Positions 36,685-43,859 of a stretch of 64,000 bases of DNA are shown here, piece after piece. Source of the DNA: an uncultured Streptococcus sp. (lineage in GTDB: Bacteria; Bacillota; Bacilli; Lactobacillales; Streptococcaceae); NCBI GenBank assembly GCA_963536045.1, contig CAUSZI010000002.1, forward strand, positions 4,757 to 68,756, in the 5' to 3' direction. A program made the translations under genes and the position numbers. How positions within the stretch are numbered: position 1 is the first letter of the stretch; each line of letters starts with the position of its first letter. The notes under the pieces are model-generated. The model ran no database searches, was not told the DNA's origin, and saw only the letters and a program-made list of their open reading frames with translations.

Positions 36685-37530
36685 ATGAGAGAATATCTTT
36701 TGAACAATGGTGTAGGCATTCCGGTGCTGGGCTTCGGTACTTGGAAGGCTCAGGATGGCGAAGAAGCCTATCAAGCAACATTAGCCGCTCTCAAGGCAGG
36801 CTATCGGCACATTGATACGGCAGCTATCTATAAGAACGAAGAGAGTGTCGGACGGGCGATCAAGGACAGCGGTATTCCGCGGGAGGAGCTCTTCATCACG
36901 ACCAAGCTTTGGAATGACATTCATACTTATGAGGAGGCTCAAGAGGCCTTTGCTGCCTCAATGGAGCGGTTGGGATTGGACTATCTAGACCTCTACCTCA
37001 TCCACTGGCCGAATCCCAAGCCCCTGAGGGAAAACGATGCTTGGAAAAAGCGCAATGCCGAAGTCTGGCGAGCTATGGAAGACCTTTATAATCTCGGCAA
37101 GATTCGAGCGATTGGCGTCAGCAATTTCCTGCCTCATCACTTAGAAGCCTTGCTTGAAACAGCGCGCATGACTCCTGCTGTCAATCAAATCCGCCTGGCT
37201 CCAGGTGTCTATCAGACAGAGGCGGTGAACTTCTGCCGTGAGCATGAGATTTTACTGGAAGCTTGGGGGCCATTTGGCCAAGGTGAGCTCTTCCAAAATC
37301 CAGCCGTACAGGCTGTGGCAGACAAGTATGGCAAGACTATTGCCCAAGTTGCTCTAGCTTGGAGCTTGCAGGAAGGCTTTCTGCCCCTGCCTAAGTCGGT
37401 CACTCCGAGCCGGATTGCCAGCAATCTGGACTGCTTTGACATCGAGCTAGATGCTGCTGACTTGGAAGTGCTTAAAAATGTCAGCGGTTTGGCCGGTGGC
37501 GCACCAAATCCGGACGGGATGGATTTTTAG
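36685..37530 (+). CDS. Aldo/keto reductase
   Basis: GFGTW, GYRHIDTAAIY, DLYLIHWP, IGVSNF, PKSVTPSRI. Confidence 0.93.
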   Translation: MREYLLNNGVGIPVLGFGTWKAQDGEEAYQATLAALKAGYRHIDTAAIYKNEESVGRAIKDSGIPREELFITTKLWNDIHTYEEAQEAFAASMERLGLDYLDLYLIHWPNPKPLRENDAWKKRNAEVWRAMEDLYNLGKIRAIGVSNFLPHHLEALLETARMTPAVNQIRLAPGVYQTEAVNFCREHEILLEAWGPFGQGELFQNPAVQAVADKYGKTIAQVALAWSLQEGFLPLPKSVTPSRIASNLDCFDIELDAADLEVLKNVSGLAGGAPNPDGMDF

Positions 37531-37983
37531 ATGCAAATCCGATTCTATCGAAGTTCAGATAGAGAAGCCTTGCAGTCTTACCATTTAACCGACTTAAGAT
37601 TTACCAATCATCCGAGTCAAGCTGTCGCTGACTTAAAAAATCGCTATGCCATCTTGGGTCTTGAAGAAGATCAAATCGTAACCTTTCTGATCTTGGATGC
37701 TGGGGAAGAGAAGTACACTTATGGTGGTCAGCCAGATAGCCTGCTCCTTCGTAGCTTTTCAACGGATGAAGCCTTTCGGATGCGAGGGTACGGTAGTCAG
37801 ACGCTGAAGCTCTTGCCTGATTTCATAAGAGAGCATTTGCCTATGTATAAAAGCATCATACTAGGTGTCAATGAGAGAAATCAAGTCGCTTCCTATCTCT
37901 ACCGAGAGACAGGTTTTAGCAAACAGTCCCAGCGGATATTAGGACCAGCTGGCTGGCAGGAAGTATATGAATTAAAAATATAA
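37531..37983 (+). CDS. GNAT family N-acetyltransferase
   Basis: FRMRGYG, LGVNERNQVASYLYRETGF; ATG immediately after the AKR stop. Confidence 0.8.
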   Translation: MQIRFYRSSDREALQSYHLTDLRFTNHPSQAVADLKNRYAILGLEEDQIVTFLILDAGEEKYTYGGQPDSLLLRSFSTDEAFRMRGYGSQTLKLLPDFIREHLPMYKSIILGVNERNQVASYLYRETGFSKQSQRILGPAGWQEVYELKI

Positions 37984-37987
37984 AGCT

Positions 37988-38018
37988 ATCCCCAGTTTGA
38001 AAAGAGCTGGGGATTTTT
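37988..38018 (+). terminator. Terminator after the AKR-GNAT pair
   Basis: ATCCCCAG..CTGGGGAT followed by a T run. Confidence 0.75.
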
Positions 38019-38214
38019 ATCTCTACCGCCAGAAGAAACTATAAAACAAACTGCTTCTGTGCTATAATGAGAGGTGTAAAATACGGCTAATATCCAACGA
38101 AACACTAAGATGGGGGAGTTAGATGAAGAAGACCCAAGAATTGGAAATTACACCCAACTGATTTAGGAAGTCATCGAAACCTTGAGAGTGGGGAGATAGA
38201 GTGAAAAGTAATCA

Positions 38215-38445
38215 TCAAAACTTCGAAGAGTAAACTCTGGCTAAATATCCAATCAATCTAAAGGGGGAATACGAGTGTTTACTAAAATATTTAGATAAAC
38301 TAGGTTTCGAATAGTCAATTTTGTAAAAAATTTCATGCTTTCTAACTATCACTTGATGCAATTTGCTAAAATATTAAACCATTCTAAAGTTCGAATATTA
38401 GCTTTTGTTAAAATTTCAAAGTATTCTAAGCGTGAAATGCCTTGA
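38215..38445. repeat. Degenerate tandem repeat array, 42-nt period (at least 5.5 units; weaker units back to about 38080)
   Basis: Units start at 38215, 38257, 38299, 38341, 38383 and 38425, sharing TCTAA..CGAATA..TTTG(C/T)TAAAAT(A/T)T in register. Confidence 0.7.
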
Positions 38446-38633
38446 TAATTCATTTTTTAAGAGACATAATCCCTATCTGAAGTTGAAGAAATCATCAGGT
38501 GGGGATATTTTATGTCTTTGATTTTGAAAAAGTGTTATTTCAGGGATAAAAAATGACATTTCAGGGCAGCCTTGCAAAAGATTTATTGTCACATGCTATA
38601 CTTAGTTCATCAAATTATTGGAGAGGTTTTATT

Positions 38634-39386
38634 ATGACTACTAACTACACCATTCGTCCCTTGACCTATAGCAACTTTACTCACCGTGAGTTTGAAAGTT
38701 TGATGACCGATTCTCGTCAAATCATCACGGACTTTGTCAAGGCAAATAAGAACGAAGATATGTATGGTACGCACTTGGAGCCCTTTGCGAGCAAGCTAGA
38801 AGAGTTCCAGAGACAGCTAGCCAGCGTGGAAAAGAAGCAGACCACAAGTCTAGCAGAGGTGGATAAGGAGCGGGACAGTGCTCTGGTCGGGCTCTTTACC
38901 CTGCATAGGGGATTTGCTAAGATAAAGGAAGCAAAGTTCAAGGAAGCCCATGAGACGCTGGCTCCAGTCCTGATCAAGTACAAGGATATCACCAAGCATA
39001 ATAACGATGTCGCCACTGCTGAGATTAAGAGTCTCCTCAAAACCCTCAAGGAAGAGCCCTACAATGCGGCAGTAACTACGCTGGGACTCTCACCGGTGAT
39101 TGGCGCAGTGACGACTGCTCAGGAAGACTATGATAAGGCCGAAGCCCTAGCGCGGGCAGCCAAGTCCAGCAAGGAAGTCGGTAAGACCAAGCAGCTGCGT
39201 ACGGAAATCTCCCGCACTTATGATCTTTTTATGCGCTATACCGCTGCCTCCGCAGAAGCCTACCCAGAGAAAGTCCACTTTGCCAAACTCCTCAAGGATC
39301 TCAATACTATCCGAGACAGTAAGCGCCGCCTGGCTGGCCCAAATAAGAAAACAAAACCGGAACAAGCACCGGAAGCAGCAGGATAA
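38634..39386 (+). CDS. DUF6261-like alpha-helical protein
   Basis: D-x2-RD (DKERD), Y..NNDVATAEIKSLL..L, AVTTLGL pattern recalled for DUF6261; GGAGAGG RBS before ATG 38634; extended -10 TGcTATACT at 38594-38602. Confidence 0.7.
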   Translation: MTTNYTIRPLTYSNFTHREFESLMTDSRQIITDFVKANKNEDMYGTHLEPFASKLEEFQRQLASVEKKQTTSLAEVDKERDSALVGLFTLHRGFAKIKEAKFKEAHETLAPVLIKYKDITKHNNDVATAEIKSLLKTLKEEPYNAAVTTLGLSPVIGAVTTAQEDYDKAEALARAAKSSKEVGKTKQLRTEISRTYDLFMRYTAASAEAYPEKVHFAKLLKDLNTIRDSKRRLAGPNKKTKPEQAPEAAG

Positions 39387-39393
39387 AGAATAC

Positions 39394-39425
39394 TCCCTTG
39401 GAAATGTAATTTCTAGGGGATTTTT
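39394..39425 (+). terminator. Terminator after the DUF6261-like gene
   Basis: TCCCTTGGAAAT-gta-ATTTCTAGGGGA followed by Ts. Confidence 0.7.
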
Positions 39426-39589
39426 GGTGTTTAATAGATAGTGGGTAGGGAATGTGAGGATGGGAGGATAATATACATTAGATTTTTATATAAATACTTT
39501 ATAGAATGAGGAAAAATTGATATAATAGTATGGGTATATTGATAAAGGATGTAATGTTTAAGTATTTAGTAACTTGTTAGGGAGGTATT

Positions 39590-42500
39590 TTGTTAATGAT
39601 TGACGAAAGTACGGAAAAGGAAAAAAAGTATAAGTTTCGTTCGCTTACATCGAATAAAGATGTAAAAATAAAACCAGTCATATCACATGCTCTAGAGTTT
39701 GTTATCAGTGATGTATCAGAGCCAACGAATGTGGCTATTACAGGGAACTATGGAGCTGGTAAAAGCAGTGTCATTGAGACGTTTGAGTTAGAGAAAAGAG
39801 ACAAAAAGTTTATCCATATTTCTCTCGCTCAGTATGATGAAGCTAAAAAAAACGAACTTAATAACCGTGAAATTAATACAATTGAGGGAAAGATTATCAA
39901 TCAATTACTTCATCAGATTGAGCCCAACTCAATTAGAAAGTCAATTTTTAAAACACTGGATGCAGAGTCACAAATTGATCCTAAGAAAAATACAGTTTTT
40001 TTATTTTCTATTTTGCTACTGTTTTTGTATTTGAATTTATGGACTGATTTTATTAAGGATATTGATTGGCTTACTTGGACTATTCATCCGATTGTTAGAC
40101 TTTCAGCACTCGTTATCTTATTTACTTTGTTTTTTTATGGAATTTTTTATTTATTAAAGTTACAAAGAGACATTGGATTCATTAAACACCTATCGCTAAA
40201 ATCAGATAAAATTGAAACAGATATAGAAGTTTTTTCAAACGAGACTAGCAAAGTATCTTATTTTGATAGATATTTGGATGATGTGATATATCTGTTTAAA
40301 CAATCTAAGGCAGATGTCATAGTCTTTGAAGACATTGAACGATTCAATGATTCAAGAATCTTTGAAAAAATTAAGGAATTAAATATTGTTATCAATAGAA
40401 AAAGGAAAGTGTGTGGAGAATCTAAATTAGTATTTTTCTATCTTGTCAAAGATGATTTGCTCGAGTCACAAGAGCGAACAAAGTTTTTTGATTTTATTAT
40501 TCCGGTAGTTCCTGTTGTCACTACTTCAAATTCCTATGATAAATTAATAGAAATATTAGAAGATATGGAACTTGGTGAGGGATTGGATGAAAATTTTTTA
40601 TTTAATATCTCATTATACCTTGATGATATGCGCCTGATTAATAATATTTGTAATGAGTATCTGACCTACAAAGAATCATTGAGTACTCCGAAATTAAATC
40701 CTAAAAAAGTATTTTCAATGATAGTGTACAAAAATATCTTCCCTAAAGATTTCTCTCTTTTACAAAAGAATCAAGGGTATTTATATGAATTGTTACATTC
40801 AAAAGATGAACAGTTAGAAGAACGAAAAAATGAATTATCGGAAAAAATTCAATTATTGGAGAAAGAGATTGAAAATGCACAAACAGAGCAGCTGAGGGAT
40901 GAGGTTGAATTGTACGGTCTAAATTTTCAAATCCCTGAAGGTAAATTAGTGATTGAAGTAAATGGAAAGAGCCAAGCAAAGTTCTCCTCCTATCATGAAT
41001 TTATCATGGAGCTGCTGAAAGAAGACAGCAAAATTACTTCTTTTAGTAATTTTTATGATGCTCATTACAATCAGTCTAGTATTGAGGAAACTCTTGACTC
41101 AGTATTTCCTAATAAAAATAGTGCAGAATTTCAAGAGCGTCTAAAAAACACTAAGAATAAACGAAATTTGCCTCGTTTAAATGATAAACTTAAATCGTTA
41201 CAAAATGAACTATATGAGTTGGATAGATTCAGATTGTCAGATGTTTATGAATCCTCGATTCAGATTGAGAATTTTGATAGTCTGTATTCAGAATCAATTA
41301 AAGAAAATCCACAATTTGCTATTATTCCTTTTTTAATAAGAAATACTTACATTGATGAAACATATCAAGATTATCTGACCTATTTCTATGATAATAAAAT
41401 TACAAAAGAAGAAAAGGAATTTATTGTAAATGTTATTTCTGGACGTGATGGTAATTATGATATTTCTTTAACCAATATCAATGAAATAGTTAATCGATTA
41501 GATCTTAAGAATTACAGATATAGCTATGTTTTAAATTATAGTTTGTTTAAATATCTACTAAATTCCCAACAAAAGAATGACACTGAGCGATTAGCTCAAA
41601 TATTCCAACAAAAGAATATTTTAGATTTCTTAATTAAATTTTATAAAACATTAGATATGACTACGCAGAATCATCAATGTATTTATGAAAAGGAGAATAT
41701 CAAATTATTGCTGGAAAAATGGTTGGAGTACAATGTTAGTCTATTTAATGAATGTTTAGAAGATAAAGATGCTGCTCCCAATGAAAATAGTCTAATAATA
41801 TCATTGATGAATTTAGTGGATTTGAGTGATATTCCTAAAAAAACGAAAGTATTGATTGCTAAGTATTTAATAAATAATCAGGTTATTCTACTTCCTGATA
41901 TGAACTATAATGTTTCCCAATTTAATCGAAATTTATCAAATATTGATATAAAGTTTAATGAATTTATTAATCAAGATGATTCCTATGAGAAGATAATACT
42001 TGACTATATTTATCAGAATAATTTGTATTTAATTTCAGAGAAAAATTTGGAATTTTTCATACTTTGGAACTTGAAAAAAGGATGTACTGACTATGAATTC
42101 AATCATCAGAATTTTGAACTTCTTAACACAAATATTGAATTGAAACCTTTATTAGATTATTGTTTGTCTTCGGAAGAAAATTTATTGCAATATGCCAAGG
42201 TTTATATCGAATTATCAAATGGTAAAATGGATGACGATCCGTCTTTTATTGAACAGTTGCTTAATTATGATATTTTGTTTCAAAATAGGGATGCAGAAAA
42301 TGAAGTAATAACGCTAGCTGAAGCAATATTGAATAGTATTCCAAATCTTTCTATTGATTATACTGAAGAGAAATTTAATGAATTATCTTTGGATAACAAG
42401 ACAAAATTGATAAAAAATCTTGTAGTAAATCAAAAAGCTCAAGTCAATTCTTATATTGTTTTATCTTATTTTTCTATCCATCCAGATTTTTCGGATCCAG

Positions 42501-43555
42501 ATTTTTTAGATCCAGATGGTTATAGTGATTTAATTGATTTTATTAACCAAGATTCTAATTTTATATTGAGTAGAGATTCATTTTTGCAGCTTAATCTTAA
42601 TTGGGACTTCCAAAATGCTTTCTTTACTAGAATTGTATCTGCAAATGATTTGGAATTGGCTATCTATAAATCAATGCTTGCAGGAATGAAACTACATTAT
42701 GAAGAGTTTGATAAAAAGGGGCTTTCGGATGAAAGAATGGGTGTCTTGATAGATTTGAAGATTATAGATTTTAACACTAGTAATCTTGACTTTATTAGAA
42801 CAGAGTATACATCTATGCGAACTTATTTCATTTTTAAAAACATAGAAAAGTATCTTAAGATTGAAGGAGGTGTTCATGATGAAATAGAGCTCAATGATTT
42901 GTTGCAATACGAAGGACTAGATGATTCCTATAAGCTACAAATAATAGATATTCTTGATTATGTGAGTTTGAAAGATAAAAAATTTTCAATTGAACTTATC
43001 ACTCACATCTTAGATTCTAAATTTGATATAAATGATTTTAGCTATATAATTAGTTCTGATTATTATGACAATGCTGATGAATCCATCAAAAACAAGATAA
43101 GAGAACTAACTAAAGAGCATTGGGATAAACTTATTAATCTAGATAATAGTGAAATTAGCATTCATTTATGCGAGTGGTTATTAGGCCTAGGCGATATTGA
43201 GGATTCAGAACGTAAAAACTTGCTTAAAAATAACTTATTATCGAATCCTGAAATGTCAAAATATAGGTTATATTTATTAGGGGATAACTTAGATTTATTT
43301 GAGCTATGGGAGATAATGAACTTATTGAGCGATTCTGATATACATGCAGAGTGGATTGAAGCGTTTAATAAATTGAATCAAAATGAAGATGTTGGCCACA
43401 ATGGGAATCAGTCAGCAACGGTATCTAATTGCGAATTCAATATCAAGTTATTAGAGTATTTAAAGAAAAGAGATATTATATCTGATAAATCTCGTCCAGA
43501 TTTAAAAGGTATTGTTTTGTATGGATTTAGAAGTGGTCAAATTGAATATCAGTAG
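39590..43555 (+). CDS. YobI-like/KAP-family P-loop NTPase with two TM helices and a long C-terminal region
   Basis: Walker A GNYGAGKS; two hydrophobic helices before Walker B VIVFEDIERF; RTKFFDFIIPVVP, DDMRLINNICNEY, VYKNIFPKDF; visibly very AT-rich; start could be TTG 39590 or ATG 39596. Confidence 0.85.
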   Translation: MLMIDESTEKEKKYKFRSLTSNKDVKIKPVISHALEFVISDVSEPTNVAITGNYGAGKSSVIETFELEKRDKKFIHISLAQYDEAKKNELNNREINTIEGKIINQLLHQIEPNSIRKSIFKTLDAESQIDPKKNTVFLFSILLLFLYLNLWTDFIKDIDWLTWTIHPIVRLSALVILFTLFFYGIFYLLKLQRDIGFIKHLSLKSDKIETDIEVFSNETSKVSYFDRYLDDVIYLFKQSKADVIVFEDIERFNDSRIFEKIKELNIVINRKRKVCGESKLVFFYLVKDDLLESQERTKFFDFIIPVVPVVTTSNSYDKLIEILEDMELGEGLDENFLFNISLYLDDMRLINNICNEYLTYKESLSTPKLNPKKVFSMIVYKNIFPKDFSLLQKNQGYLYELLHSKDEQLEERKNELSEKIQLLEKEIENAQTEQLRDEVELYGLNFQIPEGKLVIEVNGKSQAKFSSYHEFIMELLKEDSKITSFSNFYDAHYNQSSIEETLDSVFPNKNSAEFQERLKNTKNKRNLPRLNDKLKSLQNELYELDRFRLSDVYESSIQIENFDSLYSESIKENPQFAIIPFLIRNTYIDETYQDYLTYFYDNKITKEEKEFIVNVISGRDGNYDISLTNINEIVNRLDLKNYRYSYVLNYSLFKYLLNSQQKNDTERLAQIFQQKNILDFLIKFYKTLDMTTQNHQCIYEKENIKLLLEKWLEYNVSLFNECLEDKDAAPNENSLIISLMNLVDLSDIPKKTKVLIAKYLINNQVILLPDMNYNVSQFNRNLSNIDIKFNEFINQDDSYEKIILDYIYQNNLYLISEKNLEFFILWNLKKGCTDYEFNHQNFELLNTNIELKPLLDYCLSSEENLLQYAKVYIELSNGKMDDDPSFIEQLLNYDILFQNRDAENEVITLAEAILNSIPNLSIDYTEEKFNELSLDNKTKLIKNLVVNQKAQVNSYIVLSYFSIHPDFSDPDFLDPDGYSDLIDFINQDSNFILSRDSFLQLNLNWDFQNAFFTRIVSANDLELAIYKSMLAGMKLHYEEFDKKGLSDERMGVLIDLKIIDFNTSNLDFIRTEYTSMRTYFIFKNIEKYLKIEGGVHDEIELNDLLQYEGLDDSYKLQIIDILDYVSLKDKKFSIELITHILDSKFDINDFSYIISSDYYDNADESIKNKIRELTKEHWDKLINLDNSEISIHLCEWLLGLGDIEDSERKNLLKNNLLSNPEMSKYRLYLLGDNLDLFELWEIMNLLSDSDIHAEWIEAFNKLNQNEDVGHNGNQSATVSNCEFNIKLLEYLKKRDIISDKSRPDLKGIVLYGFRSGQIEYQ

Positions 43556-43625
43556 TCTATTTGAATAGAAACGCTGTAAATTTAATTATGAGTGTCTACA
43601 CCATTGTGAGTTACTCTACTGTTTC

Positions 43626-43666
43626 CAACCAATCAAGTCCTTCTTTCAGAATAGGTCTTGATTGGT
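43626..43666 (+). terminator. Hairpin/terminator after the NTPase gene
   Basis: AACCAATCAAG..CTTGATTGGTT inverted repeat followed by a T-rich tail. Confidence 0.6.
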
Positions 43667-43859
43667 TTTCTTATTTCCGGATTTTAAACTGTATTTGTTC
43701 TGTATTTCAAATAAATAGAGACTTAAAACTTTATTATATAGCTGTTCTTGGCTAGAACATTCGCCATTATTACGTTTTGGTTAAATTTGTTAGGATTGTA
43801 TGAATTGTCAGAAAATTTTTATTATAATATGGTTTATAAATAAAGATAAGGAGACTTCT

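Follow-up and report, generated by a model that had tools for sequence, protein, structure and literature searches.

We analysed a window of 64,000 nt (the whole stretch of DNA under study) from an uncultured Streptococcus sp., in which the locus of interest (38020..43700) lies between an AKR-GNAT gene pair and a subtilase gene and holds a non-coding stretch with a repeat array, a gene for a DUF6261 protein and a gene for a large P-loop NTPase. A first-pass annotation had read these parts as a candidate undescribed defence locus, possibly a single system. Its layout was confirmed, with all genes of the locus on the plus strand, terminators where it had placed them, a long hairpin upstream of the DUF6261 gene and a helical model for the 250-amino-acid (aa) DUF6261 protein (Table 1). 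The NTPase, 1319 aa long from an ATG and 1321 aa from a TTG, has Walker A at aa 50 and Walker B at aa 243, and hydropathy placed the two expected transmembrane segments between them, at about aa 132-153 and 161-190. The roughly 600 nt that had been described as repeat-bearing did contain real repeats, but these were confined to a part of it, and the rest is an hsdR deletion scar, the hairpin and a promoter. No period was found by autocorrelation in the first 180 nt of the non-coding stretch (38020-38199, best z 2.6), the last ~100 nt before the DUF6261 gene are a ComE-type promoter and not repeats, and folding of the entire 621-nt non-coding stretch was not significant (z -1.8).

The array contains five 26-nt copies at exact 42-nt spacing, and autocorrelation of 38190-38450 gave z scores of 6.3 at lag 84 and 5.1 at lag 42, against a maximum of 4.4 in 500 shuffles. 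Tandem Repeats Finder misses it because the copies are only 69-81% alike. The 42-bp period was present in 56 of 58 orthologous loci, where whole units align by position between strains and differ by point changes. Dyads were even in 33/37 loci of period 42 and odd in 31/37 loci of period 41; read as 16 bp and 15 bp, respectively, they leave a 26-bp linker in both. When the genome was scanned for periods of 40-44 bp, ten stretches were listed, and all of them but the array look like coding repeats by eye; the window's assembly held no further DUF6261 gene and no further array copy. Two TTCGAATA sites in the array, at 38306 and 38390, match a SigX-box variant reported in S. mitis; such sites number 38 genome-wide.

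To see with which gene the array travels, DUF6261 loci were collected. Relatives of DUF6261 were found in 147 of 400 genomes of the genus and in 0 of 400 other genomes of the phylum, and with the queries used none was found in phage records or viral contigs. The locus set comprised 130 loci from Streptococcus and Parabacteroides, one of which was dropped for a short flank, leaving 129 upstream and 126 downstream regions; it holds kin and a few duplicates (L089-L091 repeat L082, L080 and L083, and L007 is the window), and its Bacteroidota sampling is thin, consisting of two Parabacteroides loci and, for one of the two, further alleles. The threshold for periodicity (period 41-43 bp) was the 99th percentile of 1685 control regions. 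This analysis showed that 106/129 regions upstream of DUF6261 exceeded the threshold and only 2/126 downstream, and by group the upstream regions were periodic in 57/58 orthologues, 32/54 paralogues at the parE-parC or ileS site, 11/11 of a third paralogue and 6/6 Parabacteroides loci. The unit sequences are unrelated from group to group, and even paralogues within one genome have unrelated arrays. The array belongs with DUF6261 and not with the NTPase.

In the accessible parts of the literature the name DUF6261 turned up only within tables of two papers, and the listings returned by searches for hagB repeats and for 41/42-bp arrays held no description of such a pairing. HagB of P. gingivalis is presumably a member of the DUF6261 family, although our literature searches did not retrieve confirmation, and its original description, which the searches did not retrieve either, is said to mention upstream repeats. 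A single-locus precedent for the pairing of array and DUF6261 in print is therefore possible. As for the second paralogue, it lies between parE and parC or after ileS (L058-L077, L205-L237) and adjoins another variable slot with restriction-modification and Abi genes; several of its copies are broken, with the array partly lost. Many mitis/oralis-type loci (L029, L030, L034, L036, L239-L264) have a small gene of about 70 aa, hydrophobic and without a family match, between the ComE box and DUF6261.

The DUF6261 protein of the window is basic (isoelectric point 9.2), and its model is all-helical after a 10-residue extended start (pLDDT 93). Fold matches span either residues about 15-66 plus 181-234 or residues 67-180, which suggests two stacked helical bundles in a rod-like model. 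Searches of PDB and BFVD gave no fold match with E up to 0.001, the ESM Atlas returned only DUF6261 clusters, Pfam gave DUF6261 only, and no ParB was among the listed fold matches. The best VIA match was the sensor bundle of McpS (Z 9.2, root-mean-square deviation 3.8 over 193 residues), which shows neither kinship nor a new fold because helical bundles reach such a level by chance. A DNA mimic of the ArdA type was considered and dropped, as streptococcal DUF6261 proteins are basic. Homodimer prediction scored 0.45, with 0.00 for the best control, and on calibration 20 of 30 homodimers of solved structure came up to this mark, as did 1 of 23 monomers, counts that are only rough with the alignment used here. 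Contacts agreed between runs to at least 94% with pLDDT of at least 84, and the predicted interface is formed by residues 42-47 and 198-210. It would sit at one end of the rod, and the two N-terminal arms are then estimated from helix lengths to lie some 8-12 nm from each other, a distance similar to the 11 nm that separates half-sites on either side of a linker.

The arm is also where the protein varies with its array. Among 80 Parabacteroides metagenome loci, 74 of which were scorable and 6 too short, three alleles differ almost solely at residues 8-14, each with its own array (73/74 scorable). At the streptococcal parE-parC site (30 sequences, three array types) arm identity was 95% within and 59% between array types, compared with 89% and 85% for the body. 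On a body tree of 35 intact unique proteins the array types were scattered, requiring 5-10 changes, no fewer than shuffled labels, and the motif expected from the arm was present in 38/43 parE-parC loci. RNA reads mapped on one allele lose their match near codon 14, from where they run on with the sequence of a different arm type. Residues about 8-14 thus follow the array motif, whereas the body of the protein is freely recombined.

An alternative explanation is that another factor reads the array, or that the array shapes the DNA itself and merely regulates the gene, with the co-variation of the arm being hitch-hiking. The upstream block through codon 14 does move as one haplotype, the window array holds the two TTCGAATA matches to the SigX-box variant, and a separate reader would fit with the lack of a recognised DNA-binding fold in DUF6261. 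But the arrays of paralogues in a single genome are unrelated, conservation within an array type is higher in the arm than in the body, and none of the other array types shown has the SigX-like sites, so we regard this explanation as unlikely.

A further alternative, raised by the first-pass annotation along with binding sites, is that the array acts as RNA, either as a repeat that precedes a terminator and is cut into 42-nt units in the manner of a type III antitoxin, or as a protein-bound leader. The order of promoter, repeats, hairpin and gene does resemble type III toxin-antitoxin loci, and in one clade the array lies within the transcribed leader. Dyad mismatches at distinct sites over 15 array types comprised 68 G-U and 93 A-C, so there is no sense-strand pairing bias; the window array folds no better than shuffles (z +0.4), the central spacers of dyads occur in both orientations, and an Rfam scan of 37900-39700 gave only four chance matches below the cut-off. 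RNA reads of a related strain, X24, from about a quarter of the data of three pooled runs, gave a depth of 150-620 over DUF6261, about 100-160 over AKR-GNAT and 3.5-14 over the array with antisense almost nil, although short RNAs are lost from standard libraries and strain divergence can lower mapped depth. A separate ComE promoter lies after the hairpin. Units only 69-81% alike and a protein without a ToxN- or MazF-like fold also speak against this alternative, which we consider quite improbable; DNA binding sites fit the array better. Nine of the related-strain reads skip 44 nt within DUF6261 (window 39041-39086), probably a template-switch artefact.

The promoter of the DUF6261 gene carries a feature that the first-pass annotation had missed, as it had the hsdR scar: a ComE box lies 32 nt before the -10 hexamer, which agrees with the consensus of a 9-12-9 direct repeat at 31-32 nt from the -10 given in the accessible part of PMC6001120. 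With up to 3 mismatches the box was present in 57/58 orthologous loci and absent from the other paralogue groups (0/54, 0/8 and 0/4, together 0/66), and it is among the four best ComE-like sites in the genome. By gene order, size and GC content the gene is the orthologue of SSA_1889 of S. sanguinis SK36, where SSA_1890 is the acetyltransferase gene. The PMC6904348 supplement, as far as accessible, gives SSA_1889 an 815-nt transcript of 49.6% GC at 707 nt from the AKR transcript, as in the spacing of the window. According to the accessible supplement of PMC5719415, SSA_1889 rose from 4 to 426 (106-fold) in a hyper-competent ciaR mutant and returned to 4 upon complementation; in the same data comX rose 56-fold, comD 35-fold and SSA_0195 18-fold, while SSA_1890, SSA_1891 and prtS changed by no more than 1.2-fold. 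SSA_1889 was 31-fold down in a ccpA mutant, where comD and SSA_0195 were down too (PMC6904348, accessible part). Taken together, ComE very probably drives the DUF6261 gene directly.

Direct control by CcpA was also considered and rejected, as only a two-mismatch site without the central CG was found. The highest-scoring ComE-like box of the genome stands before the gene for a 212-aa membrane protein (L266:75-801, G000 contig C34), possibly the ComM-like early gene; a weak CPBP match (E 0.017) did not confirm this. The SK36 genes SSA_1884, SSA_1888 and SSA_1231 were 2.5-5-fold lower in the competent ciaR mutant, a drop that may reflect an influence of competence on AT-rich islands or else a GC bias of the library. 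A 2011 study by Rodriguez reportedly lists SSA_1889 as an early gene, so the link of SSA_1889 to competence may already be in print. The early-gene table of PMC6001120, as far as accessible, names no DUF6261 gene, and the link was not seen in the accessible parts of PMC13192262 and PMC5069739.

The NTPase, which had been proposed as a defence protein, matches the PADLOC Tmn profile PDLC02220 over positions 22-892 of 1273. Residues essential to E. coli Tmn are reported in section 6 of PMC13001434, of which part was accessible. As reference for them we used an E. coli plasmid protein annotated as an anti-phage transmembrane ATPase, which is assumed to equal Tmn-25 and has each residue mutated in that part of PMC13001434 at that paper's numbering. 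Eleven of the 12 needed residues are identical in the window protein (G66, K67, Y262, D276, R279, N297, K325, F326, R374, F506 and R544), and the twelfth, Y541, is conservatively replaced by F. By sequence, the window NTPase can thus be assigned to the described Tmn family, its activity being a prediction, and the claim of defence function was supported to that extent. It is highly likely to work as in E. coli, as a membrane oligomer that would sense a phage protein and collapse cell metabolism. No solved structure was related by sequence to the NTPase or to DUF6261. A 15-nt tandem repeat within the gene (42480-42517) differs in copy number among strains, and in L014 Tmn is reduced to its final 175 codons, at about 1030-1560 nt past the DUF6261 start.

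Whether Tmn and DUF6261 form one system was judged from a survey of the 400 genomes of the genus, 35 of which have Tmn; 30 loci were retrieved of 36 matches, with the window among them. DUF6261 lay within 1.5 kb in 11/30 loci (window included) and was lacking in 19/30. All 11 fall among the 19 loci whose Tmn shares 49% identity or more with that of the window, and none of the 11 more distant ones has DUF6261, so this distribution, like the presence of streptococcal DUF6261 paralogues beside defence genes at other sites, could be taken for an integrated system of array, DUF6261 and NTPase. But 8 of the 19 close loci are without DUF6261, Tmn occupies just 2 of 12 matching slots, a terminator lies between the genes, SK36 transcribes them as separate units, the Parabacteroides loci have no such context, and PMC13001434, in its accessible part, describes Tmn as self-contained without a conserved operon, with 24% of occurrences in Bacillota. 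An undescribed single system is therefore very improbable, and the pattern looks like a clade circulating through one slot instead of a fixed system. The caveat of independent acquisition held well, given the terminator of the DUF6261 gene, a GC content of 49.9% for DUF6261 against 28.3% for the NTPase gene, and the variable slot; of the co-occurrences proposed as a check, array with DUF6261 was found and DUF6261 with Tmn was not general. A decayed gene for a 14-residue repeat peptide is scarcely tenable as the origin of the array: 42 nt would make 14 codons, and in some relatives a minus-strand reading frame stays open through the array, but the window has stops in all six frames, the common periods of 41 and 43 break any frame (the 41-bp arrays largely refute the idea) and coding repeats are not expected to show dyad symmetry.

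The slot that holds Tmn was compared in 12 relatives with the same flanks, picked from the best DUF6261 matches. Elsewhere it contains HsdS/HsdM, AbiH, AbiTii, HamB, an AbiP2-type reverse transcriptase, PDC candidates or unknown genes; 8/12 slots gave a PADLOC or Pfam defence match (Tmn counted), and in all 10 relatives without Tmn similarity restarts at 43659. A variable defence slot had been anticipated, and the comparison bore this out. Upstream, the scar joins the promoter, ribosome site and first 9 codons of hsdR (38123-38149) to the final 50 nt of the gene. The relative L050 has a 995-aa HsdR that begins at the same codon and finishes with the same tail, and blastn of the window against L050 gave 95% up to the hsdR start and 88% from the hsdR end onward. 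The scar was found by a strict pattern in 9 of 18 close loci and by eye, with point changes, in 5 more; 2 of the remaining loci retain the hsdR end and 2 hold an insert. No match to hsdR, hsdS or hsdM was found in the window's assembly, which is 91% complete. By sequence comparison, the slot is a hypervariable one within a decayed type I restriction locus. The hairpin after the array is more stable on the plus strand (-26.7 kcal/mol, z -6.2) than on the minus strand (-17.3 kcal/mol) and is kept across 8 strains with one-sided changes, compensatory ones being seen in just 1/34 pairs. Because a T run directly follows it in L034, it is likely the terminator of the hsdR unit, setting that unit apart from the DUF6261 promoter.

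A role of the array as a recombination site was rejected, as the slot edges fall outside the array. L041 and L053 carry a 3.3-kb insert upstream of the array, with a Panacea-domain gene pair and an unknown 509-aa gene; it is bounded by a direct repeat of the final 48 nt of hsdR, so the hsdR tail is a second insertion site. Other slot contents were retron-type reverse transcriptases (L253, L258), DarT with NADAR (L250), Sir2-HerA (L040, L245), AriAB (L037) and KAP NTPases. Many slot genes (in L044, L051, L055, L026, L239, L243, L249, L260, L262, L059-L070) gave no PADLOC match and for the most part no Pfam match either, and are candidates for new defence genes.

Table 1 Features of the locus and its neighbours, in window coordinates
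Feature	Position	Strand	Basis or remark
AKR gene	36685-37530		left neighbour
GNAT gene	37531-37983		left neighbour, 3' of AKR
Terminator-like hairpin ending the AKR-GNAT unit	37988-38014	+	fold z -5.7; RNA depth drops here in related strain
hsdR deletion scar	38020-38199	+	blastn against L050; HsdR identity by PADLOC and Pfam
Phased 42-bp array, six imperfect 16-bp dyads (first weak), 26-bp linkers	38213-38438	n/a	repeat and autocorrelation analysis
Long RNA-type hairpin	about 38460-38520	+	folding energy, shuffle z
ComE-type box, a pair of 9-bp direct repeats separated by 12 bp	38535-38564	+	consensus and spacing
-10 hexamer of DUF6261 promoter	38597-38602	+	sequence; kept in orthologues; RNA ends at 38619 and 38626 in related strain
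DUF6261 gene, 250 aa	38634-39386	+	PF19775, 127 bits
DUF6261 terminator; left boundary of variable slot	39394-39420	+	fold; slot comparison
Variable defence slot	39430-43658	n/a	comparison with relatives
Tmn-family (YobI-like) transmembrane P-loop NTPase gene (predicted)	39596-43555	+	PF20693, 353 bits; PADLOC Tmn, 184 bits, E 1e-54
Subtilase gene	3' of NTPase gene		right neighbour

On balance we lean slightly towards a locus of two unrelated units side by side: a Tmn gene, and a DUF6261 gene that is preceded by a ComE box and encodes a protein predicted to form rod dimers, which would bind the array. Tmn would defend against phage alone from its swappable slot, as an inducible membrane protein, and ComE would switch on the DUF6261 gene in competence. 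For the second unit it seems reasonably probable that two DUF6261 subunits pair tail to tail into a rod-shaped dimer, that the N-terminal arm of each (residues about 8-14) reads one 6-bp half-site, that one dimer bridges the 26-bp linker of constant length, with five or six dimers tiling the array, and that arm and array are swapped jointly as a matched pair. More tentatively, the tiled stretch might serve as a local roadblock to transcription or as a feedback switch; in the present locus its targets would be the hsdR unit together with the flanking slots, at the onset of competence. A broader proposal, which we consider doubtful, is that DUF6261 proteins are an undescribed class of DNA-tiling rods whose dimers measure off the 26-bp linker as rulers, with a swappable arm of seven residues determining which sequence is read and giving each gene a private address, and that in oral streptococci the one paralogue under ComE control lays down this tract at a defence hotspot while DNA is being taken up, thereby gating expression or exchange of the flanking defence cassettes.

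Several observations weigh against this two-unit reading. On the side of the array, 22/54 parE-parC/ileS paralogue loci fall below the periodicity threshold, most of them with intact genes; the window dyads are degenerate, and a blind dyad scan of the window itself chose a different, odd centre. Array placement differs between clades (here 5' of the hairpin and ~100 bp from the ComE box, in another clade between promoter and gene), so a single regulatory role is not obvious. On the side of the protein, sequence and fold searches gave DUF6261 no known DNA-binding fold, the Parabacteroides member L086 is acidic (isoelectric point 4.7), and the rod dimensions are estimates from helix lengths without coordinates. 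Of the 43 parE-parC loci, 2 are discordant with another motif and 3 have none, the arm-array motifs were defined after inspection on the same data from loci that are kin, and neighbourhood linkage of arm and array alone can yield co-variation. Evidence from the ciaR and ccpA mutants is indirect and cannot tell early competence genes from late ones, and the slot-gene data are contradictory: SK36 slot genes were 4-5-fold down when SSA_1889 rose in the ciaR mutant, yet SSA_1888 went down together with SSA_1889 in the ccpA mutant. Streptococcal Tmn has 0 mentions in the accessible part of PMC13001434.

What the analysis adds is chiefly about DUF6261. For a family without an assigned function there are now candidates for the ligand and for the segment that sets specificity, along with a geometric rule and a signal that induces the gene; each of these can be tested in S. 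sanguinis SK36. If binding holds, DUF6261 would represent a new architecture for DNA binding whose protein-site pairs are naturally orthogonal, and an unexplained competence-linked gene would be tied to a defence hotspot. Tmn in a variable slot is ordinary, and the slot itself yields a list of unannotated candidate defence genes.

Among known systems, sopC-SopB of the F plasmid, with 43-bp units that contain an inverted repeat, is like the array-DUF6261 pair in having phased dyad units of about four turns (here 41-43 bp, with 15-16-bp dyads) beside a putative cognate protein. The present array differs from that and other ParABS systems in being chromosomal, short (4-6 units) and variable in sequence between paralogues and alleles; none of the families scanned near DUF6261 was of ParA type, the neighbours vary, and neither Pfam nor the listed fold matches gave a ParB or helix-turn-helix fold for DUF6261. 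Type III toxin-antitoxin systems such as ToxIN and AbiQ have repeats, then a hairpin, then a gene, but here no match to a structured repeat RNA (ToxI, antiQ, CptI, TenpI) was found, the units are degenerate and unfolded, and DUF6261 is an all-helical protein with its own promoter after the hairpin and, in SK36, a separate transcript. CRISPR or TIGR-type guide arrays differ in that there are here no constant repeats with variable spacers and no adjacent effector nuclease or Nop family. The window Tmn shares with the described family a single gene of ~1300 aa, two transmembrane segments splitting Walker A and B, and a helical C-terminal region, but is only 22% identical to the E. coli plasmid protein, and its trigger is probably another one because its C-terminal arm has diverged, the profile match stopping at 892. 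With the ComE regulon of mitis-group streptococci the DUF6261 gene shares the spacing of its direct repeat and expression that follows comD, comX and SSA_0195, while its paralogues are without the box. Finally, type I restriction-modification loci are defence hotspots, and in L037, L050 and L053 hsdR has stayed upstream and hsdS/hsdM downstream, Abi-type genes having been inserted between the two; the window differs from these in that its hsdR is a scar and an array-DUF6261 unit lies inside the locus.

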